A stretch of 64,000 bases of DNA from a virus: the IMG/VR virus record IMGVR_UViG_3300005253_000063, positions 32,001 through 96,000 of that record; one strand, 5' to 3'. The position numbers and the translations under genes were made by a program. Each line of letters opens with the position of its first letter. The stretch's first letter is position 1. Below are positions 31,690 through 49,547 of the stretch, piece by piece. The notes beneath the pieces were generated by a model. It did not search any database. It worked only from the letters and a program-made list of their open reading frames with translations, and was not told the DNA's origin.

Positions 31690-31692
31690 ACT

Positions 31693-32048: not shown

Positions 32049-32049
32049 A

Positions 32050-32090
32050 CAATCATTGTGCTAACGCTGCTAATTATGCTATTTTCATCA
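32050..32090. promoter_or_regulatory. AT-rich divergent control region with three TGCTA repeats
   Basis: TGCTA at 32059, 32068, 32077; sits at the strand switch. Confidence 0.55.
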
Positions 32091-32287
32091 TGGACCCAGT
32101 GCACGTGCAACCAACGAACGAGAAAGCGACGCAATGACCGCAACGGTTCGGAATTGCGCGACGAGTGCACAAGTCGTAGGTGCGGTTCGATCAGTGCCTG
32201 CCCCGTTCGGCGTCCGAGCAGATCGGCTCGGGCGTCGACCGGAGCAATCACGCTCCCAAGCGACACCCTCTAAGGAGGCTGGTAACC

Positions 32288-32749
32288 ATGACGACAACCA
32301 ACACTGATAGCGGCTCCAACGGCGAGTCCACCCCCACCACCCCCGCAGTCCGCAAGCTGGAGACGAAGCTGCTGCGCATCGCGGGGCGCATCACCGACTA
32401 CGGGAAGAAGGTCGGGAAGGTCCCCGACAGCACGGGTGATGAACTGCGCGCGCAGTTCAAGACCGCGACCGTTGCGGTCAAGGAGATCGTCGCGACCCTC
32501 GCGGAGCTGCCCGACAACGTGCTCAGCCGGACCGGCGCGTCGGGCGAGAAGGTACCGCTCGCGGCAGGCACGAAGGTCGAGATCCGCGAGAAGGCCCGCA
32601 AGGGCTACGAGGGCTTCATGGAGGACGTCGACCTTGTCGGGCTCACCGTCGTCGAGGTGCGCGGCAAGCGCGTTGCGTGCGACACGCCGAGCGGCATCCG
32701 CATCCTCGTACCGCGCGCCCACGTCGTGCTGGAGGAAGCGAGCGCGTAG
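32288..32749 (+). CDS. Hypothetical protein, SH3/KOW-like C-terminus
   Basis: AAGGAGG SD; G-x-KVEI...VVEVRGKRV. Confidence 0.7.
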   Translation: MTTTNTDSGSNGESTPTTPAVRKLETKLLRIAGRITDYGKKVGKVPDSTGDELRAQFKTATVAVKEIVATLAELPDNVLSRTGASGEKVPLAAGTKVEIREKARKGYEGFMEDVDLVGLTVVEVRGKRVACDTPSGIRILVPRAHVVLEEASA

Positions 32750-32834
32750 CGTCGTTCGACTGCACAGGGAGCGCGGGCTTAACCCCCCGGGTCCGCGTTC
32801 CCGCTGGAGTCAAACGATCAACAGGAGGCTGGCA

Positions 32835-33382
32835 ATGATCACACTCGAAAAAACGGTAGGAGAATCTATTTCCGCGGTGCCGAATACGCGGCTCGCGGAC
32901 AGCTCAAGGCTGGTGGGGCGAAGTGGGACCCCGCCGAACGCTGCTGGTGGATGGGCAGCGGCAAGGCAAGCGAAGCAGAGCGCATCGCTGCCGCGATCGG
33001 CAACTCGCGTACCGAGCATGATGGCGTCGATGGGATCGACACGTCCGACCGTGTGGTGCGGGGGCGGGCAACATACGCCGGCAAGACTTACTACGTACTC
33101 GCCGAGGGGATATCTCAGCGCACGGGCAAACCGTACGCGAAGCTCGCGTTCCGCGACGGGTCCCGAGTTTTCTGGGCGAAGAACGTGGCGGACGTCGAGG
33201 TCGTCAAGCGGTACAACGAACCGACTTCGATCGATGCGCTCCGCGCCTACGCCAATCGCCGTCGCGCCGAGGATGCCGGCGAAGTCGAGTGTGCGCTCTG
33301 CACACGCTACTGCACTTGCGGCACCGATCGGTTCTGCACCCACCACCACGACGGGTGCGACCGGTGCGGGATGGAGTGCTGA
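32835..33382 (+). pseudogene. DUF5710-like protein interrupted by a frameshift in an A6 run
   Basis: ATG with GGAGG SD is out of frame with GAKWDP-x-x-x-x-WW coding frame; adding one A at 32848-32853 restores it. Confidence 0.65.
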
Positions 33383-33383
33383 C

Positions 33384-33608
33384 ATGAACGAGTACATCGA
33401 ACGGTTGAGGAAATGCGCGGCGCTCTGCCGGAAGTGGGGCGACCTCGTGCACCTGTACGGGAGCGGGGATCTGTCGATCGACGAGGTCGAGGCGTTGGTC
33501 CCGTTGGCGCTATCATATAGTAGGGCGCTCATCGTCCTGCGCGCGCAGCTTGAAGCACCGGGCGGCTTCGATATCGCGCCGCTCCTGCCCACGGGTGTCG
33601 CGCAGTGA
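33384..33608 (+). CDS. Hypothetical protein
   Basis: GGAG SD; GTGA overlap with next gene. Confidence 0.55.
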   Translation: MNEYIERLRKCAALCRKWGDLVHLYGSGDLSIDEVEALVPLALSYSRALIVLRAQLEAPGGFDIAPLLPTGVAQ

Positions 33609-33940
33609 CCAAGGTGCGCCTCGCAACGGTCAAGGAGACAGGGGAGCGCTACCTGGTCATGCGGCTGCACTTGCCACGCGACCCGGCCGACCCCGCGAAG
33701 GTCTACTGTTGGGGCGAAGTCGCCAAGACGAAGGGTCGGCGCACAACGCATGGTCCGGCCCGGCTTTTCCTCCGTGACGAGGTCGAGGTGGTCGAGGTCG
33801 AGAAGACCGACGAACTCATGCACCGGCTCTGGATGCAGTACATCCGCAAGCTGCGCGCGGAGGGCCATGACATTGAGGTACATCAGACTCGCGCGGGCAA
33901 TTGGCACGCGACCGATCGCACGGGGAGAGCTGCACTGTGA
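33605..33940 (+). CDS. Hypothetical protein
   Basis: Coupled at both ends; GC3-rich. Confidence 0.6.
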   Translation: MTKVRLATVKETGERYLVMRLHLPRDPADPAKVYCWGEVAKTKGRRTTHGPARLFLRDEVEVVEVEKTDELMHRLWMQYIRKLRAEGHDIEVHQTRAGNWHATDRTGRAAL

Positions 33941-34203
33941 CGCGAGCGTGGACGAAGGACTGTGATTGGGCGTACCGATGGGAAGTCGAAAGGCTCTTCC
34001 GCGAGCGTACTCCGCCAGCCCAGGGAGATATCTATTCGATCGACTCCGCGGGCCGGGTCACAAGATCGGAAATGCGTGCGTTCTCGCAGAGGGTGTTGCT
34101 ACGCGACCCGCCCGAGACAGATGCTCGTTGGGTCGCGTGCCATGCGAAGTGGTATCAGAAGATGTCTCTTCGGGTGCGGCGCGAGATGGGGGAGATCACG
34201 TAG
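33937..34203 (+). CDS. Hypothetical protein
   Basis: GTGA overlap; GGAG SD. Confidence 0.5.
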   Translation: MTRAWTKDCDWAYRWEVERLFRERTPPAQGDIYSIDSAGRVTRSEMRAFSQRVLLRDPPETDARWVACHAKWYQKMSLRVRREMGEIT

Positions 34204-34287
34204 GGCGTCTCGCCAGGAGCCGTCGGCTGCTATGGTCGGCGACTCCGCGCGAGCAATCCTGCTCTAACCAAACGGAGGCTGGCACCA

Positions 34288-35523
34288 ATGAACACACGAA
34301 TTCTCAGAGCGACTCTCTTCACCCCGGGCCTGTACGGGCGTTGGGGAATCCCGCTCAACCTCGAAGGCAAACCCGGTACGGCAAAGACGGCGACGTGGCA
34401 AGCGCTGTCGCACGAGTCGGGTCTGCACCTCGAAACGGTCATCGCGTCGATCCGCGAGCCGAGCGACTTTCTCGGCCTGCCGATTCCCATCCGTGACAAC
34501 GCGGAGCGGCTCCAGGTCATCAACTGGATGCGATCGAAGATGCCGAACGTCAAGGTGGTCGACGTGAAGCCGAACGAGATCGCGTTCGCCATCACGGACT
34601 ACGCTCCGCCCGCGTGGGCGATTCGCGCAACGATCGCGAGGCACGCGCTGGTCTTCTTCGACGAGTTCAACACGGCGCCCCCCGCGGTCCAGGCCGCGCT
34701 GCTCCGCGTCATCCTCGAAGGCATGGTCGGGGAGCGCGAGCTGCCGAAGACCGTACGCTTCGCGATGGCGATGAACTCGACCGAGGACGCGGCCGGCGGT
34801 TGGGACATCGCACCGCCCCTCGCCAACCGTGTCGGCCACGCAGTCTGGGAGTCGCCCGACCCCGAGGTCTGGTGCGACTGGCGCATTGGCGGCGGCGGGA
34901 CCAATGGCAAGTTCGGCGATGCCGCGGCCGAGGAGGCACGCGTCATGGAGGCATGGGATATTCCATTCGCGCAGGCGTGCGGACTCGTCGCCGCGTTCAT
35001 TCGCACCCGACCGGAGCTGCTGATGAAGATGCCCTCAGAGGGGGACCCGCAAGCGAGCAAGGCATGGCCCTCGCCGCGCACCTGGGACTTCCTCACGTGC
35101 GCTCTCGCCGGTTCGATGGTGCACAACCTCGCGGAGGAAGACCGCGACGAGTGGATCTCCTGCTACGTCGGGACCGAGCCGGCGGGCGAGCTGATCACGT
35201 TCCTCGCGAACGCGGACCTGCCCAACCCGGCCGACCTGCTCGACGGCAAGGTCAAGTGGACCCACGACCCGAACCGGCTCGACCGGACCGCGGCCGTGCT
35301 CTCGGCGTGCGCAGCGTACGTCACTTCGAAGAGCACGGAGAAGCGCGAGAAGCGCGCCGCGGCGCTCTGGAAGCTGATGGCTCCGATCGTCGAAGACGCA
35401 GCCGACGTTACGGTTCCTGCGGGCCGCACGCTCTGCCGGGCGCGCCTCGCGCTGGGCAAAGAAGCGAAGCCTGTCCTCGTGAAGCTCCAGCCGGTTTTGA
35501 AAGCAGCTGGCATCCAGCCGTAG
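34288..35523 (+). CDS. MoxR-type AAA+ ATPase
   Basis: Walker A GKPGTAKT, Walker B FFDEFN, PPLANR, PSPRTW. Confidence 0.9.
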   Translation: MNTRILRATLFTPGLYGRWGIPLNLEGKPGTAKTATWQALSHESGLHLETVIASIREPSDFLGLPIPIRDNAERLQVINWMRSKMPNVKVVDVKPNEIAFAITDYAPPAWAIRATIARHALVFFDEFNTAPPAVQAALLRVILEGMVGERELPKTVRFAMAMNSTEDAAGGWDIAPPLANRVGHAVWESPDPEVWCDWRIGGGGTNGKFGDAAAEEARVMEAWDIPFAQACGLVAAFIRTRPELLMKMPSEGDPQASKAWPSPRTWDFLTCALAGSMVHNLAEEDRDEWISCYVGTEPAGELITFLANADLPNPADLLDGKVKWTHDPNRLDRTAAVLSACAAYVTSKSTEKREKRAAALWKLMAPIVEDAADVTVPAGRTLCRARLALGKEAKPVLVKLQPVLKAAGIQP

Positions 35524-35534
35524 GGAGCCGACCG

Positions 35535-36335
35535 ATGCGGAAGGAGACGAAAGTCAAACTCGGCGGACGTCGGATACCCTCGCAGTTTGTAACTGCGAGG
35601 GCGCCGTGCGCGTGCGGTCGAGGTGGCGCGCACCCCGTATCGATCACACTGGCGCAGGACGACTGTCTGCTCTCGATTGACTGCGGGTGCGACCTGAAGA
35701 TGGGCGATGCGGTCGACCGCCTTGGTGGGGACTCTTGCGCGATCCTCGCGTTGGAACTTTGGAAGGGTGTGATCGGTCGCAAAGCTTCCTACCCGGACAA
35801 GGGCGACGCCTTCGCGTTGCTCAACCAAGCGTGGCTCAACGGGAAGCGGTACGCGGAAGCGGCAGCCAGGAAGCACAAGAACTCGGACACGGACGAGTCG
35901 TTGTACCCGGGCTGGTCAGCCGAGGGCTGGACGCTCGAACGTCGTATGGCGTTGATGGACCGGGGCGGCAGCGCCGCCGCCGGCTTCCCGGTAAAGTTCG
36001 TCATCGATCCCAGCGGGCTGACCACGATGTTCATCGAGGGGGCCCATCCGAGCGTTGCGACGAAGGGGAAGGGCGGGCGCTGGACGTACGACGAGATGAA
36101 GATCGCGGATCTCGCCAAGCGCTCCGATCCCTTCATCGTTGATCCGAGCACACGACGACATAGCTACTCGAAGCACTACAACATATGCTGCTCCGCTTGT
36201 GCCCTAAATCTTAGGGACAAGAAGGGCAGCGCCCACGTTCGACTCGTCTCGCATCAGCAGGCGGTCATCGCCGGCGTACGACGCGCGCTCGCGGTCGTCA
36301 TGTCGCGACGCGACAAAGGAGGCAATCATGCCTAG
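35535..36335 (+). CDS. Cys-rich hypothetical protein
   Basis: GGAG SD; several Cys pairs; between AAA and VWA genes. Confidence 0.55.
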   Translation: MRKETKVKLGGRRIPSQFVTARAPCACGRGGAHPVSITLAQDDCLLSIDCGCDLKMGDAVDRLGGDSCAILALELWKGVIGRKASYPDKGDAFALLNQAWLNGKRYAEAAARKHKNSDTDESLYPGWSAEGWTLERRMALMDRGGSAAAGFPVKFVIDPSGLTTMFIEGAHPSVATKGKGGRWTYDEMKIADLAKRSDPFIVDPSTRRHSYSKHYNICCSACALNLRDKKGSAHVRLVSHQQAVIAGVRRALAVVMSRRDKGGNHA

Positions 36336-37956
36336 AGTGAATCGTAAGTCTGGCGGCGGTATGGATCTCAGTCCGAAGCTGAAGTTCGCCGCCGCGCGGC
36401 TGCTCATCCGCGAGAAGGTCCCGTACATACGAAGCGCTCTGCTTGGGATGGTCGTAGTCTGGGTGCCGGGTCTCGGCACGATGGGTGTGACGTACGACGG
36501 CATCCTCATGGTGGACGAGGCGTTCGTTGCCGAGTGCACGATCGAGGAAGTCGCGGGCGTGCTCTACCACGAGGTCTGGCACGTCCTGCGCGAGCACAAC
36601 GTTCGCTGCGAAGCGATGGGCTGTGTGCATCCGTTCGAGCACAAGCTCTCGAACCTCGCTGGCGACGCAGAGATCAATGACGACATCATGGATCACCCGT
36701 TCCCCTTGCCCACGCTCATCGATCCGATGACGGGGCAGGCGGGCGGACCGATCTTGCCCAAGAACTTTGGCGCAGAGAACGGCCGACTGATGGAGGAATA
36801 CTACCGACTGCTGCGAAAGCAATGCCAGCCTCAGCAGCAGCCGGGCACCGGCGACGGTTCACACGAGAAAGGTTCGGGCGAGTCTGGTCAGGCGGGGGTC
36901 GATTCTCCGTCTCCGGGTTCTGATAAGTCCGTGGCCAGTGATGACACGTCGTCTGGTGGGTCCAACGATGACCCTGGTGCGGGTCAGGGCTCACCCGCTG
37001 GGGCGGCGTCGGGTTCCGATGGTCAGCCTGGGGTCGATTCCCAGGCGTCGGGATCCGGCGCCGACTCCCCGGCGTCATCGGGCGAAGGCGAATCGAAGGG
37101 CGAGGGTGGCAGCGGCAACGCCAAAGGGAAGCTGCCCGAACGTCAAGCCGGTTGGGGCGCGTGCGGCAGTGCCGCGGGTAACCCCTTGCCGATCGAGGAT
37201 GAGATCCGCAAGAGGGTCAAGGGCCGCACGAGAGCGGAGCTGAAGCGCATGAAGCGCGAAGTCGCTGAGGCGGTTCGCAACGAGGCATCGAGGTCGCGTG
37301 GCACAGTGCCGGGCGGTCTGCTCCGCTGGGCGGAGAAGTCGCTCAAGCCCGCGGTGGTTCCCTGGCAGCGCGAGCTGGCAACGGTCTGCCGTGCGGCCAT
37401 CGCGTATCGACCCGGAGCGGTTGACTACAAGTATGATCGACCCTCGCGCCGACAGGCGGGGCTCGGCTTCAACTCGGGCGACCCGATCCTGCCGTGCATG
37501 AGACAGCCCGTACCGAACGTGCTCATCGCGGTGGACACGTCGGGGTCGATGGGAACGAATGAGCTGACCGATGGGCTTCGCGAGTCGAACGGGATTCTCA
37601 AAGCGGTCGGCGTGCATGCGACCTTCATGGCGTGCGATGCGGCGGTCCACTCGATGCAGAAGGTCCGCTCGTGGCGCGACATCCTGCCGCTGCTCAAGGG
37701 TGGCGGCGGGACGTCGTTCAAGCCGGTCTTCGAAGCGCTCAGGAAAGTGCGACCGAAGCCGGACGTGCTCGTGTTCGTGACCGACGGCATGGGAGACTGC
37801 CCCGAGCAACCACCGATCGGAACCAAGGTCGTGTGGTTGCTCGTTGGTTCGCACCGCACGAAGCCGAGCATGGGTTCGTATGGAGGCAAGCCCGTCACCT
37901 GGGGCAAGTGTATCTACCTCGGTGGCGATCCGAACGCGGAGAAGGAGGCAGCGTAG
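36328..37956 (+). CDS. Metallopeptidase-like/VWA protein (DUF2201-like)
   Basis: HEVWH HExxH, Gly/Ser linker, MIDAS DTSGSM, GGGGTSF, VTDG. Confidence 0.9.
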   Translation: MPRVNRKSGGGMDLSPKLKFAAARLLIREKVPYIRSALLGMVVVWVPGLGTMGVTYDGILMVDEAFVAECTIEEVAGVLYHEVWHVLREHNVRCEAMGCVHPFEHKLSNLAGDAEINDDIMDHPFPLPTLIDPMTGQAGGPILPKNFGAENGRLMEEYYRLLRKQCQPQQQPGTGDGSHEKGSGESGQAGVDSPSPGSDKSVASDDTSSGGSNDDPGAGQGSPAGAASGSDGQPGVDSQASGSGADSPASSGEGESKGEGGSGNAKGKLPERQAGWGACGSAAGNPLPIEDEIRKRVKGRTRAELKRMKREVAEAVRNEASRSRGTVPGGLLRWAEKSLKPAVVPWQRELATVCRAAIAYRPGAVDYKYDRPSRRQAGLGFNSGDPILPCMRQPVPNVLIAVDTSGSMGTNELTDGLRESNGILKAVGVHATFMACDAAVHSMQKVRSWRDILPLLKGGGGTSFKPVFEALRKVRPKPDVLVFVTDGMGDCPEQPPIGTKVVWLLVGSHRTKPSMGSYGGKPVTWGKCIYLGGDPNAEKEAA

Positions 37957-38232
37957 ATGACGAACCCACACCATCAGCGTTACCTGCGAAGAGACTGGAT
38001 CGAAAGTCTCAACTTCTACTGGACTACGATGGATCTCACCGGCGTCCTTCTTGGCTGTGCCGAGCTACTCGAACTAGCCAAAAAGGTAGCCATCGAATCC
38101 AGCGGCAGCGTGGTTGTCGGCGAGACTCGTCGTTACGGAATGGACAAGTGGCGAGTGAACGACGTGCAAGCGTGGCACGACCGCGTGCGTGAGGCCGACG
38201 CGCGAGCACGGCTTGGGGAGGTAGCGACGTGA
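37957..38232 (+). CDS. Small protein, tandem paralog 1
   Basis: Ends W...DARARLGE; GGAGG SD. Confidence 0.55.
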   Translation: MTNPHHQRYLRRDWIESLNFYWTTMDLTGVLLGCAELLELAKKVAIESSGSVVVGETRRYGMDKWRVNDVQAWHDRVREADARARLGEVAT

Positions 38233-38507
38233 TGCGACAGCACGCGCGGCTCTTGGCTACGGGCAGGGGTGAGTGGATGACCGAGACGGTGTTCATTGCT
38301 GCATGCCGTGTTCTAGTCGACGGATGGCACCTCGACCGTCGTCTCGTCATGGACGCCGCCCACGCTGCCGAGTGCGACGGCACGCTCTCCCGCATCGCGA
38401 CCAGCATCGAGTTCAACGAACCCTACTGGATCGTCAACGAACTCGACCGGTGGCTCGACACGCTCCGCGTGCTCGATGCCGCACGACGACTTGGGAGGGC
38501 GGCGTGA
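38229..38507 (+). CDS. Small protein, tandem paralog 2
   Basis: GEWMTETVFIAACR...LRVLDAARRLG. Confidence 0.6.
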   Translation: MMRQHARLLATGRGEWMTETVFIAACRVLVDGWHLDRRLVMDAAHAAECDGTLSRIATSIEFNEPYWIVNELDRWLDTLRVLDAARRLGRAA

Positions 38508-38830
38508 CGCGAAATCCCCACTTGGCCGAGTGTCTGTACGCGGGCGAGTACATGACCGAGCACGTGTTCGTCGCCGCGTGCCGCGAGCTGGTTGGCGAAG
38601 TGCTCGACCACCGCAGCATCACGCGCGCTGCCTCAGCGAACCGCGTGATGTTTGAGGGCCACCCCGAGAACGTCGAGACGGTCGACTGGCGCTCTGCCCG
38701 GTGGCGTGTGCGAACGGAAGCATGGGACGCGTGGGCCGACGTATTGCGCGCACTCGATGCTGAGCAGCGCCTCGGCGAACAACCGAGGGACGCCTTTCAT
38801 GGGCTCCGGTGGGATCCAGAACAAGCTTAG
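38504..38830 (+). CDS. Small protein, tandem paralog 3
   Basis: GEYMTEHVFVAACR...LRALDAEQRLGE. Confidence 0.6.
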   Translation: MTRNPHLAECLYAGEYMTEHVFVAACRELVGEVLDHRSITRAASANRVMFEGHPENVETVDWRSARWRVRTEAWDAWADVLRALDAEQRLGEQPRDAFHGLRWDPEQA

Positions 38831-38912
38831 CTGCACAGAGCGCACGGCTTCGGCCGTGCGTTCGATGGAGCATTGCTCCGCGACAACCAAACAGAAACAG
38901 GAGGCTGGAACA

Positions 38913-39788
38913 ATGACGCAACAAGCACAGGCGCAAGGCACTCAACAAGTGCAGGGCATAGTCGCGGTTACCGAGAGCATGGAAACGGCTGGCTGTATAG
39001 TCTGGTGGCGGCTCAGCGGTTCGACCGACGGCTACGCGCTGCGACAGGCGTGGGAAGACGCGGGACTCCCCGAGGATCTCGTTCCCGAGCTGCCCTCGGC
39101 CGAGAAGGCGCTACGCCGCGCGGTCATCGAGCAGCGCGAACGCAGGCGCTTGGTCCGCCCGCTTGAAGGCACGAAGGGCTGGGCCGTCGTGGACGAAGCG
39201 GCGAGCGGCGACGATCTCGATTACTCGGTCAGACTCAAAGTGACCCTCAACAAGATCGGCCACGTGAGCATCGAGCCGGAGGGTGCGGTTGGTTCCGACG
39301 AGATCAAGGCGGCGTACCAACGCCACCTCGCGCAGTTGGCGCAGACCGACATCAGCACGTGGCTGGTTCGTCTCGCCGCGCGTGTTCGCGCGGTCGCGCT
39401 TCGCGACACAGGCGGCGTATACTTCATCCCCCGCGAACAGGTTGCGCAGTGGCGACGGATGGCCGGCGCGCTCGGCGCAGCGAGCGCGAGTCGCGTCTTC
39501 GAGGTTCCCGCGCTCAAGAGCGACGAGGCGATCGAAGCCGTGCTCGACGCCGTGGCGCGCGAGGCCGAGACTGCTGCCGAGGTGATGGAGGAGGAGCTGG
39601 CGAAGGAGAATCTCGGGGAGCGCGCGTTGCGTACGCGGACCGAGCGCTGCGGCGCGATCGAAGAGAAGCTCTCGACGTACGAGAAGCTCCTGGGCACAAG
39701 CCTCGACGCACTCCACGACCGGCTCGAAGTTCTGCAAGCCGGTCTCGCAACCGCGGCCCTCGCAGCGATGGCAGGGGACGACGACTGA
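38913..39788 (+). CDS. DUF6744-like protein
   Basis: G-x-IVWW-x-L and LR-x-x-GGVYFIP motifs; coiled-coil C-terminus; family name from memory. Confidence 0.65.
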   Translation: MTQQAQAQGTQQVQGIVAVTESMETAGCIVWWRLSGSTDGYALRQAWEDAGLPEDLVPELPSAEKALRRAVIEQRERRRLVRPLEGTKGWAVVDEAASGDDLDYSVRLKVTLNKIGHVSIEPEGAVGSDEIKAAYQRHLAQLAQTDISTWLVRLAARVRAVALRDTGGVYFIPREQVAQWRRMAGALGAASASRVFEVPALKSDEAIEAVLDAVAREAETAAEVMEEELAKENLGERALRTRTERCGAIEEKLSTYEKLLGTSLDALHDRLEVLQAGLATAALAAMAGDDD

Positions 39789-41944: not shown

Positions 41945-42713
41945 GAACAAACAGCCGCGCCGCACACCGCGCGATGCGCCATGGACTCCGTTCTATCAGT
42001 GCGACCACTACACGGACGGAGCCGGCAACAAGACGGCGCTGCCCACGGGCGCGGTCTATCTGCGCAACAACCACTACCAGGTCGACCTCCGCGTCATGGA
42101 GTCGAAGGAACCCTTCGGTCGAGTCGTGTGGCTCTCGATCAAGCGTAACGACCGTAAGACGATACACGACTGGCGCGACCTGCAGCGCATTAAGACGGAA
42201 GTCCTCGGTGCGGAGATCGAGGCGATCGAGTTGTATCCCGCGGAGTCACGACACGTGGACACGTCGAACCAGTATTGCCTCTGGTGCTTCATGGACGGCT
42301 ACCGCTTTCCGTATGGCTACCAGGAGCGTTTGCTCATGGACAAGGATCGCGGTGACGGTCCGCCCGAGCTGAGCTTGTCGCAGCAACGACCGTGGCGCTA
42401 CCACGAGCGACCGGATGACGTCCTCTCGATGGGCGAAGTGATGAGGCAGTACGTGAAGGACAAGGACTTCGGCGCCCGCGTGGACGGGCTGCCCGCAACA
42501 ACCAAGGAGGCTGGAGATGGCAAAGGTGCAGTCGAAGAAGTGCAACGAGTGCGAGGTTCGAAAACCCGTGGGCTCGTTCGACAAACACAAGAACGCGAAG
42601 GACGGCTACCGGGCGACGTGCAAGAAGTGCCGCGGCGGAATGAAGGCAAAGGCCAAGCCGAAGCGCAAGATGTCGCAAGGGCAGAAGGTCACGCTCGCGA
42701 ACAAGATGACTAA
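41931..42713 (+). CDS. Conserved phage hypothetical protein
   Basis: WLSIKR-x-D...DWRDLQ-x-IK...EA-x-ELYP-x-ES motif; last ~65 codons overlap next gene. Confidence 0.7.
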   Translation: MSKRRNKQPRRTPRDAPWTPFYQCDHYTDGAGNKTALPTGAVYLRNNHYQVDLRVMESKEPFGRVVWLSIKRNDRKTIHDWRDLQRIKTEVLGAEIEAIELYPAESRHVDTSNQYCLWCFMDGYRFPYGYQERLLMDKDRGDGPPELSLSQQRPWRYHERPDDVLSMGEVMRQYVKDKDFGARVDGLPATTKEAGDGKGAVEEVQRVRGSKTRGLVRQTQEREGRLPGDVQEVPRRNEGKGQAEAQDVARAEGHAREQDD

Positions 42714-42849
42714 CGGAAGCGGTGACGAGCACCCGCTCGCGAGTTCGTTGCGCAAGCTCTACCGCAAGGGCGTGCGCCGGGTCGAGTTCGACGATAAGGG
42801 AGTCGCCAAGCTCGAACTCATCTCGACCGAAGTCGTGCGCGGACTGTAG
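42517..42849 (+). CDS. Zinc-finger protein
   Basis: K-x-C-x-x-C...F...DG-x-x-x-x-CK-x-C; AAGGAGG SD. Confidence 0.7.
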   Translation: MAKVQSKKCNECEVRKPVGSFDKHKNAKDGYRATCKKCRGGMKAKAKPKRKMSQGQKVTLANKMTNGSGDEHPLASSLRKLYRKGVRRVEFDDKGVAKLELISTEVVRGL

Positions 42850-42924
42850 GACGGCTGCGCAGGTCGGCTCGATCGTCGGGCCAACCGCCGGAGCAATCCT
42901 GCTCATCTGGGAAGGAGGCTGGAG

Positions 42925-43317
42925 ATGTCACAACTCCAAGACGTACGCCTGCGCGGAGTCGCCACTGATGACTTCCGTCGCAGCGAGAAGACGATGTTCG
43001 ATCGTTGGCGGAAGAAGAACCGCAGCATCAAGTTCGGTCCGAACGATGCGGTGATGTTCGTGTCGGGCACGGGTAACCAGATCGTGTTCGTGTTTCGCCC
43101 GGTGACGATCGACAACTCGGAGCACAAGGGTAGCGACGAGTACGAGGTCACGCCCTCGCGAAGGTTGCGGCTCGATGGCGGCACCTGGCACCCGTGGATG
43201 ATTCAGAAGTACGCGGAGCAGCTTGGGCTGCACGCCGACGGCATCAAGCCGTTTGAGGCGCACTTCAACGAGTGGCAGGAGCGCAAGCGTCGCCGCCGCA
43301 GGAGACGACGGGGGTGA
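42925..43317 (+). CDS. Hypothetical protein, weak IS66 Orf2-like motifs
   Basis: TDDFRRS / AVMFVS...NQIVFV / RLDGGTWHPW pattern. Confidence 0.6.
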   Translation: MSQLQDVRLRGVATDDFRRSEKTMFDRWRKKNRSIKFGPNDAVMFVSGTGNQIVFVFRPVTIDNSEHKGSDEYEVTPSRRLRLDGGTWHPWMIQKYAEQLGLHADGIKPFEAHFNEWQERKRRRRRRRRG

Positions 43318-43630
43318 CACGATCCCTCTCATCGCGACCCTGCCCGCGTCATCCGCGAGCAGCTCCCCTAGAACTGGGTCCGCACACGCGGAGTCCCGTT
43401 TCAGGGGGTCCCGCCCAGCGCGACTACAGGGGTTCCAGGGGGACCCCACGAGGGCGGGCTGTGCTGGGTCCCAGCGTGGGGTCCCCTGTGAGACGCAATG
43501 ATGCGGCCCTCGTGCGGGCAACCCGCTGTGTCGCAGTACAGAGCGTCGACGGAGCCGTTAGACCCCGCCGCGGATCCGGGGGGCCTGTGGATCCGCATTG
43601 TAAGTGCGCTTACATTTCACAGGGGGCCGC
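43318..43630. other. Structured non-coding interval
   Basis: Several inverted repeats and CAGGGG repeats; no convincing ORF. Confidence 0.5.
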
Positions 43631-43978
43631 GTGAGCCGGCGCAAACGAGGCGAGGAACCCACGCTCGCGGAGGTCTTCGCAGGGGCCTTTCGCGACATAG
43701 GCACGCGTGGCTACGAGCCCGACTGGTCCGAGCGCGCGACGTCGGAGCAGATCGCGAAGCTTGACGACAAGCGCAGGGGCGTCACCGCGGAACAGGATGC
43801 AGTGCGTCGACTCGCGGGTCGATGCGAAGCGTGCGGCCACGCCGAGGTCGACCACGTCGAGGTGTGGACTGTCGACATGCGAGTTGAACAACTCGCGCTC
43901 GGCCTCGACCGCTCCTCGGGTAGCGCGTTCATCTGCTCCGTGGGCAACTGCCGTTGTACGGAGTCGGTGAAAGAATGA
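43631..43978 (+). CDS. Hypothetical protein with Cys/His cluster
   Basis: C-x-x-CGH-x-x-x-x-H...C...C-x-C. Confidence 0.55.
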   Translation: MSRRKRGEEPTLAEVFAGAFRDIGTRGYEPDWSERATSEQIAKLDDKRRGVTAEQDAVRRLAGRCEACGHAEVDHVEVWTVDMRVEQLALGLDRSSGSAFICSVGNCRCTESVKE

Positions 43979-44247
43979 AGCTCTACGAGACCGAAGTCCG
44001 CATCCTGGTCTACTCGATCGCGGAGTCGGAAGAAGAGGCGCGCAGGCGTGCGCTGGAGTTCGCCGATATTGAACTAATGAAGGGGCGCGGCGACGCGTTC
44101 ATGACCACGCCGATCAGCGAGGTCGATGAGATCGTACTGCCGTGGCCGGACGAGCGTCCGTACGGCAGCAACAAGAGTTTGACCTGCGCCCAATGGGTGC
44201 GGAGGCTGGAGAGACCCGATGCCAAAGAAGACACTGAAGCAGGCTGA
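43975..44247 (+). CDS. Hypothetical protein
   Basis: ATGA overlap; AESEEEA motif. Confidence 0.55.
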   Translation: MKLYETEVRILVYSIAESEEEARRRALEFADIELMKGRGDAFMTTPISEVDEIVLPWPDERPYGSNKSLTCAQWVRRLERPDAKEDTEAG

Positions 44248-44683
44248 GCGCGAGCTAGCGAAAGCGCTCGGCCGTCTGGATGAGTACCAAGGGATCGTCG
44301 GGCGACGCAACGCGCGCAAGGCGGTCGCGAAAGCGCTGCGCTCAGTTCGCAACGTGGTCGATCGCGACTTCGCTCCGATCCGCGGTAGGGCCAAGAAGCG
44401 TCTGTCGGGTAAGCCTGCTGACGTGCAGCGCCGCTTCCATCGCCGGATGGAGGAGCTTGACTACGACCCCGTGCCTTCGGACGCAGCCTTGATGGGGATG
44501 CTCGTGAAGGCAAAGGTTCCCATGAAGGTCGAGCCGGGAACTAGCGGTATGGAAATTTGGATCCCGCATTGGGTTCTTATGATCCCGCACCACGCGCGCA
44601 CCGTGTCCCGGCTGCGCAAGCTCGCGAAGTCGCCGAACGACCGCAGAGTCTGGCTTGCGCGCAAAGCGTTGGAGAAGGAGTAA
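44219..44683 (+). CDS. Basic hypothetical protein
   Basis: GGAG SD; GC3-rich. Confidence 0.55.
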   Translation: MPKKTLKQAERELAKALGRLDEYQGIVGRRNARKAVAKALRSVRNVVDRDFAPIRGRAKKRLSGKPADVQRRFHRRMEELDYDPVPSDAALMGMLVKAKVPMKVEPGTSGMEIWIPHWVLMIPHHARTVSRLRKLAKSPNDRRVWLARKALEKE

Positions 44684-44686
44684 GCC

Positions 44687-45259
44687 GTGGCAGACCCGGA
44701 CGACCTTGACGAGTTCGACGACATCGCGCGGGTGGCTGCGCGCGTTGCGCGGAAGTACAAACGCACCTATTGGTGGAGCGAGGAGGAGGACCTGCGTCAG
44801 GAGGCGTGGGCCGCACTGCTCAAGGCAGTCCACCATTGGGATCCGCGCGTGGGTGCTCCCCTCGAAGCGTATCTTTGGCGCGCTGCGAACTACGCGCTGC
44901 GACCGTTCGTGTGGAAGAACGCCTCGATCGCAAGCGCGTCCTATCGACAGCTCGCCGAGCTGTTCAAGCACCACCGCGCGCAGCTCAACGAATCGATCGT
45001 GGACCCCGCGCCGTCGGCAGACGAGGTCATCGAGGAGGCGCGTTGGCGGCGCGCGATCCGCAAGGAGCTTGCGCGCATCTTCGCGAGCGACAAAGATGGT
45101 AGTCTCGCGGAGGCCGTGCTCATGGCGGGGTACAAACCGTTGCAGGTTGCTCACGTCTTGGATGTCCCGGTACAACGTGTCTACAGCGCGAGCGCACAGA
45201 TACGCCGACGCATCGAATCCGACTACACCCTCTTCAAGCTCTGGAGGAACAACACGTGA
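44687..45259 (+). CDS. Phage sigma70-like factor
   Basis: Region 2 EDL-x-QEA-x-x-ALL-x-AV-x-x-WDP-x-x-G-x-x-L-x-x-YL; C-terminal HTH. Confidence 0.8.
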   Translation: MADPDDLDEFDDIARVAARVARKYKRTYWWSEEEDLRQEAWAALLKAVHHWDPRVGAPLEAYLWRAANYALRPFVWKNASIASASYRQLAELFKHHRAQLNESIVDPAPSADEVIEEARWRRAIRKELARIFASDKDGSLAEAVLMAGYKPLQVAHVLDVPVQRVYSASAQIRRRIESDYTLFKLWRNNT

Positions 45260-45903
45260 AGATTGCACTGGGACCAGAGACGCACGTCGTCGACGTTCGC
45301 TTGGACACGATCGATGAAGCGCCCGACAACCCCAACGTCATGGAGCCCGAGATGTACGTGCGGCTCGTCGAAGCGATCCGTCGGTTCGGGTTCCTGCAGC
45401 CGGTTCTCTTGAAAGAGACGGAGAACGATCGCTTCGAGATCGTGGACGGACATCACCGCATCCGCGCAGCGCGCGAGCTGGAGTACGAGTTCGTTTCCGC
45501 GGTCGTGGTCGACCAGGAGGATGACGCACACGCACTGGCCGAGGTGCTGCGGGTCGGGATGAACAAGCTGCGCGGCGAGCTGGACCTCTCCGGGGTCGGG
45601 CGCATCCTGGCTGACCTGGAGAAGAACGGTTGGGCAATGGACGACCTCGTGCTCAGCGGTTTCAACGAGAGCGAGATCAACGACCTGATCGACACGGTGA
45701 CGCGCGACCCGGGTGAGGACCTCTCCGGTATGGGAGGCGCTCCGCCACCCGACCTCGACCCGCCGCCACCGCGTCCCTTCCTCATCGAGATCCTGTTCTC
45801 GTCACGCGAGGAGTACCAGCAAGCCCGGAAAGGTCTGCGCCGCGCGGCGGGCAAGGGCAACGAACTGTCTGTGGGATTGCTGCGATTGCTGGGCGAACAG
45901 TGA
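45256..45903 (+). CDS. ParB/Srx-like protein
   Basis: NPN-x-M, I-x-x-FGFLQPV and IVDGHHR motifs. Confidence 0.85.
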   Translation: MKIALGPETHVVDVRLDTIDEAPDNPNVMEPEMYVRLVEAIRRFGFLQPVLLKETENDRFEIVDGHHRIRAARELEYEFVSAVVVDQEDDAHALAEVLRVGMNKLRGELDLSGVGRILADLEKNGWAMDDLVLSGFNESEINDLIDTVTRDPGEDLSGMGGAPPPDLDPPPPRPFLIEILFSSREEYQQARKGLRRAAGKGNELSVGLLRLLGEQ

Positions 45904-45951
45904 TAGCGCACAACTAGCGAAACAAGCATACTCAGCGGAGAGGAGACAGTA

Positions 45952-46197
45952 ATGACTCGACGCTCGAAGCAAGCAGAGTTTCTACGAACGAAAGGCTACG
46001 TCCGCGCGACCAAGGCCGCGCAACTCGTCCGAGTATCACCGTCCGCCATCTACCGGATGCTGGAGCAGGAGACGCTCGACGGCACGAAGATCGGGGGCCG
46101 GTGGTACGTCACGCTCAAGTCGCTCATCGAATACTGTGGCTCGGCTGCGAAGGAGTTCGGTCTGCTGGAGCTGCAGCGGAAGGCGCGGGCCCGGTAG
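45952..46197 (+). CDS. Excisionase-like HTH protein
   Basis: AA-x-L-x-x-VS-x-x-x-IYR...KIGGRWYV. Confidence 0.8.
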   Translation: MTRRSKQAEFLRTKGYVRATKAAQLVRVSPSAIYRMLEQETLDGTKIGGRWYVTLKSLIEYCGSAAKEFGLLELQRKARAR

Positions 46198-46541
46198 TGT
46201 CCAAGGTGCTCGGCACAACCCGGGACGGTAGGGCGCGGTTTCACGCGAGCGGGTGGGACGTTCAGCGTGTCACGGTGCGACATGGCGTGCTCGTATGCAA
46301 CCAATGCGGGCACGAACACGAGTGCGACGATGAGCTGTGCTTCTTCTTTCATCCGCAGCGGGGACAAGGACCGTGGGTCTGCCCAGGCGAATGCTACGTC
46401 GAGCAGGTTGAGAGTGCCGCACGCTATCGTCTCGCGACCGAGTCGTTTCGCCGACTCGGGGGTGCCGGGAGATTCCCGGACGAGGACGAGGTCGAAGACG
46501 ATCCCTTACACACCGGCATCTTCACCAAGGTTGGTGCCTAG
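46197..46541 (+). CDS. Zinc-binding hypothetical protein
   Basis: Two Cys pairs; TAGTG overlaps. Confidence 0.55.
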   Translation: MSKVLGTTRDGRARFHASGWDVQRVTVRHGVLVCNQCGHEHECDDELCFFFHPQRGQGPWVCPGECYVEQVESAARYRLATESFRRLGGAGRFPDEDEVEDDPLHTGIFTKVGA

Positions 46542-47929
46542 TGTGGCTGGAAGCTAATAACTTGCACGCGCGGGTCGTGCGCGCAACGCGAGAAGACCGG
46601 CGTTGGTTGCACGGCTACCTCTCGTTCGAAGATACGAGCGCGCACTACCGCAAGGGTGGGGGTGGCGGACGGACGTCGCTTTACAACCTCATCGCTGACT
46701 CGTTCCCCGCGGGACTCATCTCGCTCGTCATCCGCGGTGCAAAGGCCGAGGGCATGCAGGTGCAGATCATTGACAAGCGTACGTGCCCCGCGCCACGCGA
46801 TCCCAACGCGGACCTGGCCTGGCTACGCGACTACCAGGAGGACGCAGTCGAAGCTAGCGCTCGCAGGACGCGTGGCATTCTCTGGATGCCGACCGGCTCG
46901 GGCAAAGGGGAAATAGTGCTCGGCCTTGTGCGCGCGATGCCCTGCAACTGGCTGTTCGTGGTCCACCGCTCCGGGTTGATGTATGACATCGCGGACCGAT
47001 ACGAAAAACGGAACTCACTCGAAGCAGCTGGCCGCATCGGCGATGGGAAGTGGGAGTCTGCGGACCCGAGCGGCGCGAGCGGAGCCTCTCTCACGTGTGC
47101 GACGTTTCAGACTTTGAGTAAGGCATACGGCACCCCGCAGTTCGCACAGCTCGCGAACTCTGCCCAGGGCCTCATCGTTGACGAAGCGCACTGTTTGCCA
47201 GCCGCGTCGTTTTGGCGCGTCGCGATGCAGATGCGGAACGCGTACTACCGGATCGCGATGAGCGGCACACCGCTCGCGCGCGGTGACAGGAAGAGCCTGT
47301 ACACGGTCGCCGCAATGGGCTCGGTCATCTATCGCATCAAGCCGGACGTGTTGATCGCTGCAGGCGTGCTCGCGAAGCCGCGCATCAAGTTGGTGCCCTG
47401 CTTCCAAACGAGCGACCGGCCCACGTGGCAGGGCGTGTACGGCGAGTGCATCGTACGATCGAAGCGCCGCAACCGGCTTGTTACCGAAGCCGCGAAGCGT
47501 GCGAAGGCGCCGATGCTCATCTTCGTCAAGGAGATCAAGCACGGCAAGCTGCTCCGCACGATGCTCGAAGACGCGAACATCCAGACCGACTTCGTCTGGG
47601 GTTCGGACTCGCAGCGGTCCCGCGAGCGTTCGGTCGAACGACTGGAGCGCGGCGACATCGATGCGATCGTTTGCTCGGTCGTCTTCCAGGAGGGCATCGA
47701 CATCCCTTCGCTGGAGTCGGTCGTTGTTGCCAGCGGTGGGCAGAGTGTCATCGCTACGCTGCAACGCATCGGTCGCGGGATGCGAACCGACCAAGGACGT
47801 AAGACGACGTTTGAAGTATGGGACCTCGACGACCGTGGGCAGAAGTGGTTGGAGAAGCACAGCCGCGCTCGGTCTCGCGCGTACCGTTCGGAAGGCTACG
47901 AAGTCGTAGTCGAATCGGTGGCCGCGTGA
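46541..47929 (+). CDS. SF2 DNA helicase (UvsW/XPB-like)
   Basis: LRDYQ, PTGSGK, DEAH, SGTP, EGIDIP and QRIGRGMR motifs. Confidence 0.93.
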   Translation: MWLEANNLHARVVRATREDRRWLHGYLSFEDTSAHYRKGGGGGRTSLYNLIADSFPAGLISLVIRGAKAEGMQVQIIDKRTCPAPRDPNADLAWLRDYQEDAVEASARRTRGILWMPTGSGKGEIVLGLVRAMPCNWLFVVHRSGLMYDIADRYEKRNSLEAAGRIGDGKWESADPSGASGASLTCATFQTLSKAYGTPQFAQLANSAQGLIVDEAHCLPAASFWRVAMQMRNAYYRIAMSGTPLARGDRKSLYTVAAMGSVIYRIKPDVLIAAGVLAKPRIKLVPCFQTSDRPTWQGVYGECIVRSKRRNRLVTEAAKRAKAPMLIFVKEIKHGKLLRTMLEDANIQTDFVWGSDSQRSRERSVERLERGDIDAIVCSVVFQEGIDIPSLESVVVASGGQSVIATLQRIGRGMRTDQGRKTTFEVWDLDDRGQKWLEKHSRARSRAYRSEGYEVVVESVAA

Positions 47930-48174
47930 TCGAAGTTCCCGCGCGCATCGTCTGCGACACCGAGGGTTGTGACGCGAGCGAGGACATCGTTCTTCGCAGC
48001 AAGGCCGGATCGAATTACCTCGCGGTTCGGAAGGGAATCTGGGACGAGGGGATGACGTTGCCACCCGAGTGGGCGGCTATCTGGTCGAAGAGCGAGAACT
48101 GCGAGTACATCCAATGCCCGACGTGTGCGAAGACGTATGACGCGCGCAAGCGTTTGGAAAAGACAACGGCATAG
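47926..48174 (+). CDS. Small zinc-ribbon protein
   Basis: CD-x-x-GC...CP-x-C; GTGA overlap. Confidence 0.55.
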   Translation: MIEVPARIVCDTEGCDASEDIVLRSKAGSNYLAVRKGIWDEGMTLPPEWAAIWSKSENCEYIQCPTCAKTYDARKRLEKTTA

Positions 48175-48175
48175 C

Positions 48176-48203
48176 AAAAGGGCCCCGGTTCCCCGGAGCC
48201 CTT
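48176..48203 (-). terminator. Intrinsic terminator at convergent junction
   Basis: AAGGGCCCCGG-TTCC-CCGGAGCCCTT stem; T-tract on minus strand. Confidence 0.65.
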
Positions 48204-48223
48204 CCGCACGAGCGCGGCGGTCG

Positions 48224-48571
48224 CTACTTCGCCTGCTGGTCGAGTGCTGCCCGCACCCAATCGCTCAAGGTCATGCCTGCAGCCTTGGCCGCTGCGTGCC
48301 ATTGTGCGAGCTGGTGCTTGTAGCAGTTCACAAGCATCTGCGCATCGCGTGGTGTGGACTTCTTGCGGAGTCGCAGCGGCAGCTCGATGTCGTTCTTCTC
48401 GAACCAGTTCTTCGCTGTTGTCTTGCCGATGCGCTTGAAGTCGTCGTCCTGGTGCACGATCCAGCGGCGACCCGCCGTGAGGTACATCGTCGAGCCGGTG
48501 GCCCGCCACTTGGTTGCGCGGACTGGGTTGAACCGTCCGCCGCCTTTGATATGGACTTGGATGCTCGCCAT
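48224..48571 (-). CDS. Protein with C-terminal ribbon-helix-helix-like domain
   Basis: GGGAGGT SD; AA-x-AAGMTLSDWVR-x-AL. Confidence 0.7.
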   Translation of the reverse strand: MASIQVHIKGGGRFNPVRATKWRATGSTMYLTAGRRWIVHQDDDFKRIGKTTAKNWFEKNDIELPLRLRKKSTPRDAQMLVNCYKHQLAQWHAAAKAAGMTLSDWVRAALDQQAK

Positions 48572-48584
48572 CGGCTTTACCTCC

Positions 48585-48830
48585 CTACGCACAGACGCGC
48601 TGTTGACTATGGATGCCATTGTAGATTGTGATCGAGCCATAGACTTTGCCGTGATGCGACACGTTGTAGAGCATCTCATCGCGGGCCTTGCGCACGATCC
48701 AGCCGCGGCCGTACTTTGTGCGGACGTGTTGCTTCGCGAATGCGAGCGCCTCGCGAGCGGAGTTGAAGCCATGCTCCGTGTAGAGCCCATCACTATCGCC
48801 GAACATGCAAAACTGTACTCGGTGTTTCAT
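48585..48830 (-). CDS. Hypothetical protein
   Basis: GGGAG SD; F-x-SAREA-x-x-FA. Confidence 0.55.
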   Translation of the reverse strand: MKHRVQFCMFGDSDGLYTEHGFNSAREALAFAKQHVRTKYGRGWIVRKARDEMLYNVSHHGKVYGSITIYNGIHSQQRVCA

Positions 48831-48842
48831 GGTCCGTCTCCC

Positions 48843-49223
48843 TTACGCGAACGCGCGGTGGTTATGGTTGTGGTTGTCCTCGACCGCTTCGTGTACGCGG
48901 GACCCGAGCCCCGAACGATCGACCCAGCGTGCAGACGTGCGCTCGACCAGCTCCCGTACGAACGACTTGGGCGTGTAACCGTGTTTGCTGATCGCGCTGC
49001 GCACGTCCTTGTCGGCCTGCCGCGACACCACGCCGTGGCACTCGCGCGGTGCGTACCACGCGTCCACGTCGTCGTGCGCTTCGACCTCTCCAAACATGAT
49101 GCCGAGAATGTCGCTCGCGCAACGGCTGAGCTTGAAGCTCGGGTGGTGCGCTAATCGAAGGACGTACTGCGTGGGCAGGTCCGCCGTGAGCGCGAGGAAT
49201 GCGATGAAGTTGTGTGTCGTCAT
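48843..49223 (-). CDS. Hypothetical protein
   Basis: AGGAGG SD within repeated leader module. Confidence 0.6.
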   Translation of the reverse strand: MTTHNFIAFLALTADLPTQYVLRLAHHPSFKLSRCASDILGIMFGEVEAHDDVDAWYAPRECHGVVSRQADKDVRSAISKHGYTPKSFVRELVERTSARWVDRSGLGSRVHEAVEDNHNHNHRAFA

Positions 49224-49303
49224 TGTGCCAGCCTCCTGTTGGTTGGAGCAGAAGCGCTCCTTCACACGCACCCCGTGACCGCGATGCGTGCTGAGGAACA
49301 TCC

Positions 49304-49543: not shown

Positions 49544-49547
49544 GGTC

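Follow-up and report, generated by a model that had tools for sequence, protein, structure and literature searches.

In this study, we analysed a leader module that recurs between genes of an uncultured phage, within a window of 64,000 nt that comprises bases 32001–96000 of the 118,354-bp IMG/VR phage record IMGVR_UViG_3300005253_000063. The module runs from the stop codon of an upstream gene through a long irregular hairpin, a mini-hairpin which reuses the closing GGAGC of the long one and an A/C linker to the 9-mer GGAGGCTGG, in which a GGAGG Shine-Dalgarno core is extended by CTGG, and to an ATG. It lies in sense, is restricted to two convergent gene units of the phage and is conserved in relatives with compensatory changes. 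We see about an even chance that the module acts as a cis-acting RNA element in a polycistronic, probably early, phage mRNA, where it would serve as operon punctuation by joining a processing or stabilising hairpin to a strong start site. All RNA structures discussed here are predictions, and the gene calls are crude and based on GC content at third codon positions (GC3).

Architecture of the leader module

The 9-mer GGAGGCTGG has nine matches in the window, where shuffled sequence gives 0.56 on average (none of 100 shuffles reached nine), and eleven in the whole 118-kb genome, compared to four for a reversed-pattern control. Nine of the eleven genome copies end 1–9 nt before an ATG, and the copies at window 29634 and genome 96701 have no start nearby. 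One start-linked copy (genome 9223–9231, minus strand) lies outside the window; the other eight are found within 19.6 kb, i.e. 16.6% of the genome, in the two convergent units (binomial p = 4e-6). All start-linked copies lie in sense, the start codon is ATG at all nine, compared to 73 of 135 genes overall, and no copy within the window precedes a structural gene, in line with the earlier remark that the module is not seen before late genes. CTGG follows GGAGG at 9 of the 39 starts which combine GGAGG with ATG, the runner-up 4-mer being seen only twice, and the remaining 30 GGAGG starts of the same phage lack it; GGAGG itself is the commonest Shine-Dalgarno core of the phage (31 of 135 crude genes). 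The conserved bases of the 9-mer presumably extend past the usual pairing with the anti-Shine-Dalgarno sequence.

Upstream of the linker, the original prediction had described a variable hairpin 1, followed by a palindrome GAGC-N6-GCTC. Hairpin 1 is real, but it constitutes only the top part of a longer irregular hairpin of 16–26 predicted pairs with 1x1 and 2x2 internal loops, the 3′ strand of which ends in the GGAGC of the palindrome. The extended hairpins contain one to five G–U pairs each, and their tops have no sequence in common between copies. As had been claimed, they usually follow a stop codon: in five of the six modules the long hairpin starts 0–6 nt after a real upstream stop. All five of these stops are TAG, which accounts for 41 of 136 stops in the crude gene list; TAG was nevertheless discarded as a family feature, since relatives mostly carry TGA at the same position. 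The claim that hairpin 1 always pairs holds well for modules A, B, D and H, with z-scores of −3.3 to −3.8, and less well for C and F, which fold more weakly. The modules hold three of the eight strongest perfect hairpins of the genome, and in five of six modules the fold of the sense strand is the more stable one compared to antisense (−44.2 versus −31.6 in module H). Pairing of each module's own flanks amounts to −13.7 kcal/mol on average, compared to −9.0 kcal/mol for swapped flanks; the value of the true flanks is equalled by only 2 of 720 re-pairings and by none of 500 shuffles.

In the mini-hairpin, the same GGAGC pairs with GCUCC in a stem of 5 bp, closed by GG...CC, around a loop of 3–7 nt. 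Long hairpin and mini-hairpin are mutually exclusive, since both use the same GGAGC. The extended fold is favoured by 0.4–1.7 kcal/mol in modules A, C and D and by 6–8 kcal/mol (8.0 at most) in F and H. The linker consists almost only of A and C and is therefore unable to pair with itself. Counted alone, GAGC-N6-GCTC is weakly enriched, as it occurs 7 times in the window, against 3.18 expected, and 4 of 100 shuffles reach this number. Beside the 9-mer it is enriched beyond chance: GAGC-N3-6-GCTC lies at most 50 nt upstream of 5 of the 11 copies, against 0.10 expected, and none of 20,000 random placements reached five. Among the nine start-linked copies, five have an inverted repeat of 4–5 bp with a spacer of 3–6 nt.

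The six full and two partial copies listed in the original prediction were all recovered at their positions, but two start-linked copies, at 44201 and at genome 9223–9231 (minus), had been missed. Module A (32199–32290, plus strand, z = −3.8) comprises an extended hairpin at 32199–32246 with a 13-bp top at 32207–32238, the mini-hairpin at 32241–32256, the linker, the 9-mer at 32274–32282 and ATG 32288. Module B (32747–32837, plus, z = −3.3) begins with TAG 32747 and continues with an extended hairpin at 32751–32818, in which 5 of 26 pairs are G–U and the 14-bp top spans 32767–32802, a degenerate mini-hairpin, the 9-mer at 32824–32832 and ATG 32835. In module C (34201–34290, plus, z = −0.9), TAG 34201 is followed by the extended hairpin (34209–34253), the palindrome (34251–34264), an A/C-only linker, the 9-mer (34274–34282) and ATG 34288 of a gene for a MoxR-type AAA ATPase. 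Module D (38828–38915, plus, z = −3.5) precedes a DUF6744 gene and consists of TAG 38828, an extended hairpin at 38830–38871 with an 11-bp top at 38838–38863, a mini-hairpin with 3-nt loop at 38867–38879, the linker, the 9-mer at 38900–38908 and ATG 38913; here we found both the predicted cUUCGg loop, which closes the top, and the predicted N3 version of the palindrome. Module F (42847–42927, plus, z = −1.9) shows TAG 42847, an extended hairpin at 42850–42898, a palindrome at 42891–42904, which is the same as in C, as had been noted, the 9-mer at 42914–42922 and ATG 42925. Module H (49221–49306, z = −3.4) lies on the minus strand, with TAG at 49306–49304, the extended hairpin at 49299–49256, the mini-hairpin at 49260–49245, the linker, the 9-mer at 49236–49228 and ATG at 49223–49221. 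A distance of exactly 9 nt between palindrome and 9-mer, reported for three copies, is seen at 34265–34273, 42905–42913 and 49245–49237.

Partial copies are reduced to the start-proximal part. Copy E (42494–42519, plus; 14.8 bits, E = 0.04) has an A/C linker, the 9-mer at 42506–42514 and ATG 42517, but no hairpin (z = +1.1), and is located within the frame of the preceding gene, which is still open there. Copy G (44201–44221, plus; 8.1 bits) is the 9-mer alone, 9 nt before ATG 44219 and inside the end of the upstream gene. Before the first gene of the leftward unit, a further partial copy (51428–51465, minus; 8.3 bits) displays an A/C-rich leader, a variant of the 9-mer and an ATG near 51430.

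Several known classes of element were considered and set aside. The module is no intrinsic terminator, as neither a GC-rich hairpin with T-run is present at any module nor is any of the 9 terminator-like sites in 31000–50000 a module hairpin; no T-run follows the module hairpins, and the ordinary terminators named in the original prediction as a refuting case are thus not seen here. Promoters of extracytoplasmic function (ECF) or sigma-70 type inside the module were rejected, since no −10-like element is conserved and the spacing to the Shine-Dalgarno sequence is not constant. A mobile palindrome of the repetitive extragenic palindrome or bacterial interspersed mosaic element (REP/BIME) type was rejected as well, given tops without common sequence and copies that all lie in sense in one region. 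A likeness of the 3′ arm and linker to the antitermination signals boxA and boxB of the lambda and rrn operons is considered unlikely, as the U-rich boxA core is lacking and the copies are too many. No Rfam family matched at its gathering score in the window, and at E < 1 the region 31800–51800 yielded a single match, an implausible microRNA far under its threshold.

Conservation in related phages

Judged from sequence comparison, the module is not private to this phage but common to relatives, namely a metagenome contig and two IMG/VR phages which carry it in the same gene region. The contig (L220, 10 kb, 64% GC), which was found in a protein-based scan of metagenome contigs, agrees in gene order. 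Modules stand there before the orthologues of three of the module-bearing genes, and L220 carries one more; in this contig, a module precedes an extra gene after the AAA gene. The closest relative protein seen (P0002, on a 14-kb Logan/ENA contig) is 84% identical to the product of the gene after module D. Between module D and its orthologue in L220, 16 of 16 pairs are kept in both, the flanks are invariant and no pair is broken. In the 11-bp top stems, compensating changes number three double and two single ones, with a third single one in the lower stem. A second relative (L255) has a third version of module D with yet another top sequence, and the half-sites of the palindrome at this orthologous site are 3, 6 or 9 nt apart in the three phages.

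A covariance model, proposed along with the original prediction as a check, was built in two versions, both with module A among their seeds: R1 reaches from the mini-hairpin to the ATG, R2 covers the mini-hairpin only. R1 found nothing beyond the known copies in the whole genome and nothing in 781 kb from 39 relative loci, including the whole of relatives G001 and G002. R2 found further copies in L255 and L260, where the mini-hairpin is followed by CAA and, 3–10 nt on, by a plain Shine-Dalgarno sequence; the 9-mer is absent. In the complete records behind these loci, R2 gave five matches within 5.5 kb on one strand (G006) and three strong matches within 7 kb (G007); among the other complete records, G008 and G009 had none and G010 one weak match. 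Across 14 mini-hairpin copies from 4 genomes, 97.1% of the positions are paired, three of the five pairs show double changes, and none of 500 shuffles reached the observed score. The stems GGAGC, GGUGC, GGCGC, GGGAC and GGAGU occur within single genomes, each with a matching partner. The position of the mini-hairpin is constrained as well, as it sits 3–20 nt before the Shine-Dalgarno sequence, with a stop codon 24–66 nt before it in 15 of 17 copies of the relatives. Both hairpins thus keep their pairs in relatives, and the compensatory changes observed there support both.

The 9-mer does not follow this pattern. Its counts in five relatives are 0, 0, 1, 0 and 5, none with hairpin or palindrome context, and one of these copies, in G003, has an ATG 1 nt downstream; CTGG follows no GGAGG in G001 and G002. 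While the hairpin is kept at orthologous genes in L220 and L255, the 9-mer has one exact copy in L220, with a 7-nt core at three starts, and is absent from the leaders of L255 and L260 and from G001 and G002. L255 and L260 combine the hairpin with CAA and a plain Shine-Dalgarno sequence, which makes the hairpins the family trait and the CTGG extension a peculiarity of this phage.

Contigs from three DNA runs (one study, two samples, with two runs possibly being the source of the record) match the window and display no variants in the modules. No close relatives of the AAA gene turned up when viral contigs were searched at the protein level. Exact matches to the 14-mer in viral contigs were dismissed as chance, with more than 111 single matches and 6 with GGAGG downstream in unrelated contigs (41–65% GC, no protein similarity).

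A candidate element of operon punctuation

The module occupies some of the few true gaps between blocks of overlapping genes, and from its layout (upstream stop; long hairpin; mini-hairpin reusing GGAGC; unpaired CAA in the relatives or A/C linker in this phage; strong Shine-Dalgarno sequence; ATG) we infer the following mechanism. The long hairpin would be a processing or stability signal, comparable to the RNase III sites that separate early genes in T7 and SP82. After cleavage, the upstream message would retain a hairpin that protects its 3′ end. The downstream message would open with a small stem-loop at its 5′ end, followed by an unstructured landing stretch and a strong ribosome-binding site (RBS); together, these may shield the message and promote translation of the gene that leads the following block. 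CTGG would be a private, start-associated extension of the Shine-Dalgarno sequence, read by the ribosome, a protein or an RNA. A phage regulon element in the form of a structured cis-RNA or processing site with RBS had been among the earlier suggestions, and it is supported by the sense orientation, the better folding of the sense strand in five of six modules, the compensatory pairing and the confinement to two units.

RNase III processing signals reportedly lie between T7 early genes, as Dunn and Studier are said to have described in 1983. With its 16–26 predicted pairs, the module resembles such a signal, which is an irregular hairpin of about two helical turns with internal loops between cistrons. 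The likeness extends to irregular hairpins in early polycistronic gaps just before the next RBS, and to several copies per genome that are alike in shape and different in sequence. We know of no counterpart in the T7 and SP82 signals for the strand-sharing mini-hairpin or the private Shine-Dalgarno extension. For SP82, early-gene RNase III sites are attributed to Panganiban and Whiteley 1983 in the reference list of PMC4838370. Single-strand cuts by RNase III leave stabilising 3′ hairpins, according to PMC3867540; a cut of this kind would do the same to the predicted hairpin here. The downstream half may be compared to 5′ stabilisers of mRNA, such as a 5′-terminal stem-loop (Emory et al. 1992) and the polypurine, RBS-like stabiliser of SP82 (Hue et al. 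1995), both as cited in PMC7509114, which also describes RBS-dependent stability of SP82 phage mRNA, gsiB and aprE. Here, too, a small stem-loop lies closely before a very strong Shine-Dalgarno sequence, the likeness being one of layout only.

Several points weigh against this interpretation. The promoters of the two units are candidates known as consensus matches only. The stem of the mini-hairpin is mostly one sequence (GGAGC in 10 of 14 copies), which would equally fit sequence-specific recognition by a protein, and plain processing needs no arrangement of mutually exclusive hairpins in which the extended form is favoured by 0.4–8.0 kcal/mol. Nor does this interpretation account for the CTGG extension. 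Four of the 14 mini-hairpin rows and the L220 match were picked with structure-aware models, so that the pairing counts are biased towards pairing. Finally, the same genes in G002, L216 and L221 (55–57% GC) are preceded by A/C-rich leaders or sigma-70-like promoters, with no module.

In L216 (around 5850–6000) and upstream of the orthologues in G002 (L207), the corresponding boundaries between genes carry sigma-70-like promoters or a promoter-like element that is repeated. Promoters at the same boundaries in relatives that lack the module suggest that module and separate promoters may be alternative organisations of the same genes.

Relation to start-associated sequences

The closest known elements are the start-associated sequences (SAS) of Cluster K mycobacteriophages and their extended form (ESAS). 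SAS have been known since 2011 as a short asymmetric motif with a Shine-Dalgarno core 3–7 bp before the start (PMC3203893), and a survey from 2025 still calls the role of SAS and ESAS unverified (PMC12699233). In both systems a motif with Shine-Dalgarno core lies a few nucleotides before the start (1–9 nt before ATG for 9 of 11 9-mers here), in one orientation, before non-structural genes only, with a bias to ATG and in the wider gaps between genes. The conserved bases of SAS exceed what pairs with 16S rRNA, and the same presumably holds here, with the 30 of 39 GGAGG starts that lack CTGG as indirect evidence. About half of the SAS copies have an upstream inverted repeat with variable spacer and are then termed ESAS; here the fraction is five of nine, with arms far shorter than the 17 bp of ESAS.

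There are also differences. The SAS consensus is a different 13-mer without sequence similarity, and SAS belong to mycobacterial siphoviruses, in contrast to the uncultured myovirus clade studied here. We therefore regard the module as an analogue of SAS and not as a member, since the 9-mer sequence differs and the phages are unrelated. For the ESAS repeats, Pope et al. found that the departures speak against RNA pairing as an explanation, and they favoured DNA-binding proteins (PMC3203893), whereas the 5-bp repeat of the module keeps its pairing via compensatory changes. A stop-anchored, long and variable hairpin belongs to the unit here, unlike in SAS, and in the relatives it is the hairpin that is conserved and not the Shine-Dalgarno extension.

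The same kind of arrangement as SAS/ESAS is thus found in an unrelated clade of uncultured phages, in which the repeat upstream of the RBS is, unlike in SAS/ESAS, an RNA structure kept by compensatory changes, and to which the module adds a long hairpin anchored at the previous stop as well as two mutually exclusive folds. A module of about 90 nt with predicted break-and-restore mutations can separate processing, stability, coupling and factor binding. Should it work as a portable unit that ends one message and starts the next strongly, it would be a candidate part for operons in high-GC hosts.

Alternative explanations

In a ribosome-gated switch or a structure-bridged translational coupling, a ribosome terminating on the upstream gene would melt the long hairpin and free GGAGC for the mini-hairpin, or the fold would bring the stop beside the next start, so that translation of the next gene would depend on that of the previous one. 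We rate this as possible but rather unlikely. It would account for the position of the long hairpin 0–6 nt behind the stop in all five modules that follow a gene, for the pairing of at least two stop-codon bases with the mini-hairpin region in the best duplex of 14 of 15 relative copies, and for two folds which have GGAGC in common and differ little in energy in A, C and D. When the stop region is held open, the predicted probability of the mini-hairpin rises from 0.37 to 0.95 in D and from 0.00 to 0.91 in H. However, the Shine-Dalgarno sequence is predicted to become more accessible in B, D and H but less so in C and F; on account of this inconsistency a plain Shine-Dalgarno sequestration switch was rejected and is kept as a rival only. 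Covarying stems (GGUGC/GCACC) are moreover no longer able to pair with the Shine-Dalgarno sequence, pairing between stop and mini-hairpin is weakly partner-specific (−10.11 kcal/mol for true partners versus −8.99, and 958 of 20,000 re-pairings do equally well), and module A and two relative copies have no upstream gene end nearby.

A related proposal, to which we give somewhat less credence, is a two-state RNA device in which the long hairpin would hold the stop against the mini-hairpin loop until termination opens it, the mini-hairpin closes and the next start is licensed. Licensing could be direct, proceed via a factor that binds the mini-hairpin, or via an exposed processing site. In the centroid fold of module C, the stop region is paired with the mini-hairpin loop. 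If true, this would be a phage-borne coupling of genes across a structured gap of 70–95 nt and a possible model for start-associated sequences.

Alternatively, a phage or host RNA-binding protein could read the GG...CC mini-hairpin, here together with the extended Shine-Dalgarno sequence, and co-tune the early genes. Conservation of the stem goes beyond what pairing would require (GGAGC/GCUCC in 10 of 14 copies, GG...CC in nearly all), the place of the hairpin 3–20 nt before the Shine-Dalgarno sequence is fixed, and the 9-mer has bases that presumably lie beyond the usual anti-Shine-Dalgarno pairing. The same argument has been published for SAS (PMC3203893). Such a trans-acting factor remains compatible with operon punctuation and does not exclude it, but with loops that vary in sequence and length (3–7 nt) and no candidate RNA-binding protein among the proteins scanned, we consider this explanation doubtful.

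The recombination handle suggested in the original prediction finds weak support and appears improbable. Here, a module of 40–90 nt would be a homology patch for gain, loss and shuffling of gene blocks, akin to the promoter-early stem-loops (PeSLs), which are cassettes described in T4-type phages (Arbiol et al. 2010, PMC2839356). In PeSLs, stop codon, stem-loop, Shine-Dalgarno sequence and start follow each other in the same order (same source), the stem-loop containing G–U pairs and the repeated unit lying in variable early regions; here, too, one gene block in which relatives differ has a copy on either side. This five-gene block, 32835–34203, is missing in G002, which has the flanking genes side by side, and is bounded by modules B and C in this phage; modules C and F have an identical 14-mer, copies E and F have a 14-nt stretch around the start in common, and in L220 a module precedes the extra gene after the AAA gene. 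The block 43318–44686, which is also absent from G002, is, however, not flanked by modules, the relatives used for this comparison are distant (about 50% protein identity), and changes in gene blocks must end between genes regardless. The compensatory changes point to selection on RNA folding, beyond sequence identity. A PeSL is defined by its promoter, a strong sigma-70 one, and has a terminating stem-loop, whereas the modules contain neither a promoter-like site nor a T-run; as there is no promoter inside, the module is not a PeSL. A GC-rich stretch of 286 nt (43318–43603), with many short inverted repeats and no coding signal, separates the gene after module F from the one that follows it.

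Operation as a double-stranded DNA operator for a dimeric regulator, likewise suggested before, is very improbable. The palindrome of 16 bp has conserved half-site sequences that are about one helical turn apart in most copies, but the half-site spacing differs at one orthologous site in three phages (3, 6 or 9 nt) and five different stems occur within single genomes, always with the matching partner, both of which argue against an operator, as do the strict sense orientation and the position 30–47 nt before starts inside operons, with no promoter beside it.

Two further explanations are hardly credible. That there is nothing special about the module, beyond a strong Shine-Dalgarno sequence which matches host 16S rRNA and ordinary terminators, would suit GGAGG as the commonest core (31 of 135 crude genes), but is already largely refuted: a ribosomal match would act on all genes and CTGG is seen at 9 of 39 GGAGG starts in one region only, the hairpins have no T-runs, and hairpins and flanks are conserved with compensation across phages. 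A link to the TIGR-TasA system, with the leaders as degenerate guide units or TasA binding sites, was prompted by a loop-repeat 9-mer that occurs three times on the plus strand outside arrays, two of them in the linkers of modules A (32260–32268) and D (38880–38892), and by a 13-mer in module D that is the end of an array near genome 14620. A TIGR array unit recurs about every 36 nt and comprises an edge repeat and a loop repeat, each followed by a spacer (PMC12045711); the pattern of this unit finds arrays at genome 12.3–19.9 kb and no leader, the internal geometry of the leaders is unlike the 36-nt unit, guide spacers in leaders are at chance level (3 of 362 matches with at most one mismatch), and A/C-rich leaders with the same short words exist in G002.

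Genomic context and further observations

In a frame-specific GC3 plot, overlapping genes are packed in window 32.3–48.2 kb on the plus strand and 51.5–48.2 kb on the minus strand, and true gaps in these two units occur at the modules and few other places. Each unit is headed by an AT-rich promoter-like region with an 11-nt motif that is present exactly twice in 118 kb, the copies facing inward. The rightward copy (32033–32043) overlaps a promoter-like site at 32026–32053 (plus), the only sigma-70-like match in 31000–50000; the second copy, at 51508–51518 (minus), lies in the region heading the leftward unit, which also has a 7-bp inverted repeat. The inward-facing motif regions are candidate early promoter or operator signals. 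Where the units converge, the strongest perfect hairpin of the genome (48174–48207, −29.1 kcal/mol) is found, with a T-run on the minus strand.

From this arrangement we infer that the two convergent units are probably early transcription units, with a sigma factor gene as context. In the rightward unit, there are genes for a MoxR-type ATPase, a DUF2201 peptidase/VWA protein, a DUF6744 protein, a sigma-70 family protein, a ParB-like protein and a helicase. The gene for the phage sigma-70 family protein (region 2; PF04542, E = 5e-8) lies inside this unit at 44687–45259 (plus), and it stands in a row (44687–46197) with genes for a protein with ParB N-terminal domain and an HTH_17 protein.

The phage is a myovirus with genes for tail sheath, tape measure and baseplate, and its record has direct terminal repeats of 121 bp at the ends. 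Portal, family A DNA polymerase, RecA and DnaB genes are present as well, several of them with inteins. LAGLIDADG intein-type insertions were seen in the genes for portal, RecA, a DnaB-like helicase and GTP cyclohydrolase I, and these four genes lie at genome 21219–24104, 99857–101905 and 108778–111105 and at window 59623–61194, all on the minus strand. The phage has no tRNA genes, and a nucleotide search of its genome against a cultured phage collection gave no match; a related tail sheath (43–71% identity) is encoded by 74 IMG/VR loci.

Two reading frames beside module copies deserve mention. Around copy E, a 260-codon frame from 41931 stays open to 42713, while its coding signal stops near 42450 and the frame of the next gene (42517–42849) takes over, which corresponds to either a 200-nt overlap or a frame change. 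In the gene after module B (32835–33382), which starts at ATG 32835, coding signal and a DUF5710-like domain shift to the −1 frame after a run of six A (about 32845–32850), and this frame has no start codon of its own before 32951. The contigs from the three runs show no indel in the six-A run, and a programmed −1 frameshift or slippage is possible at this site.

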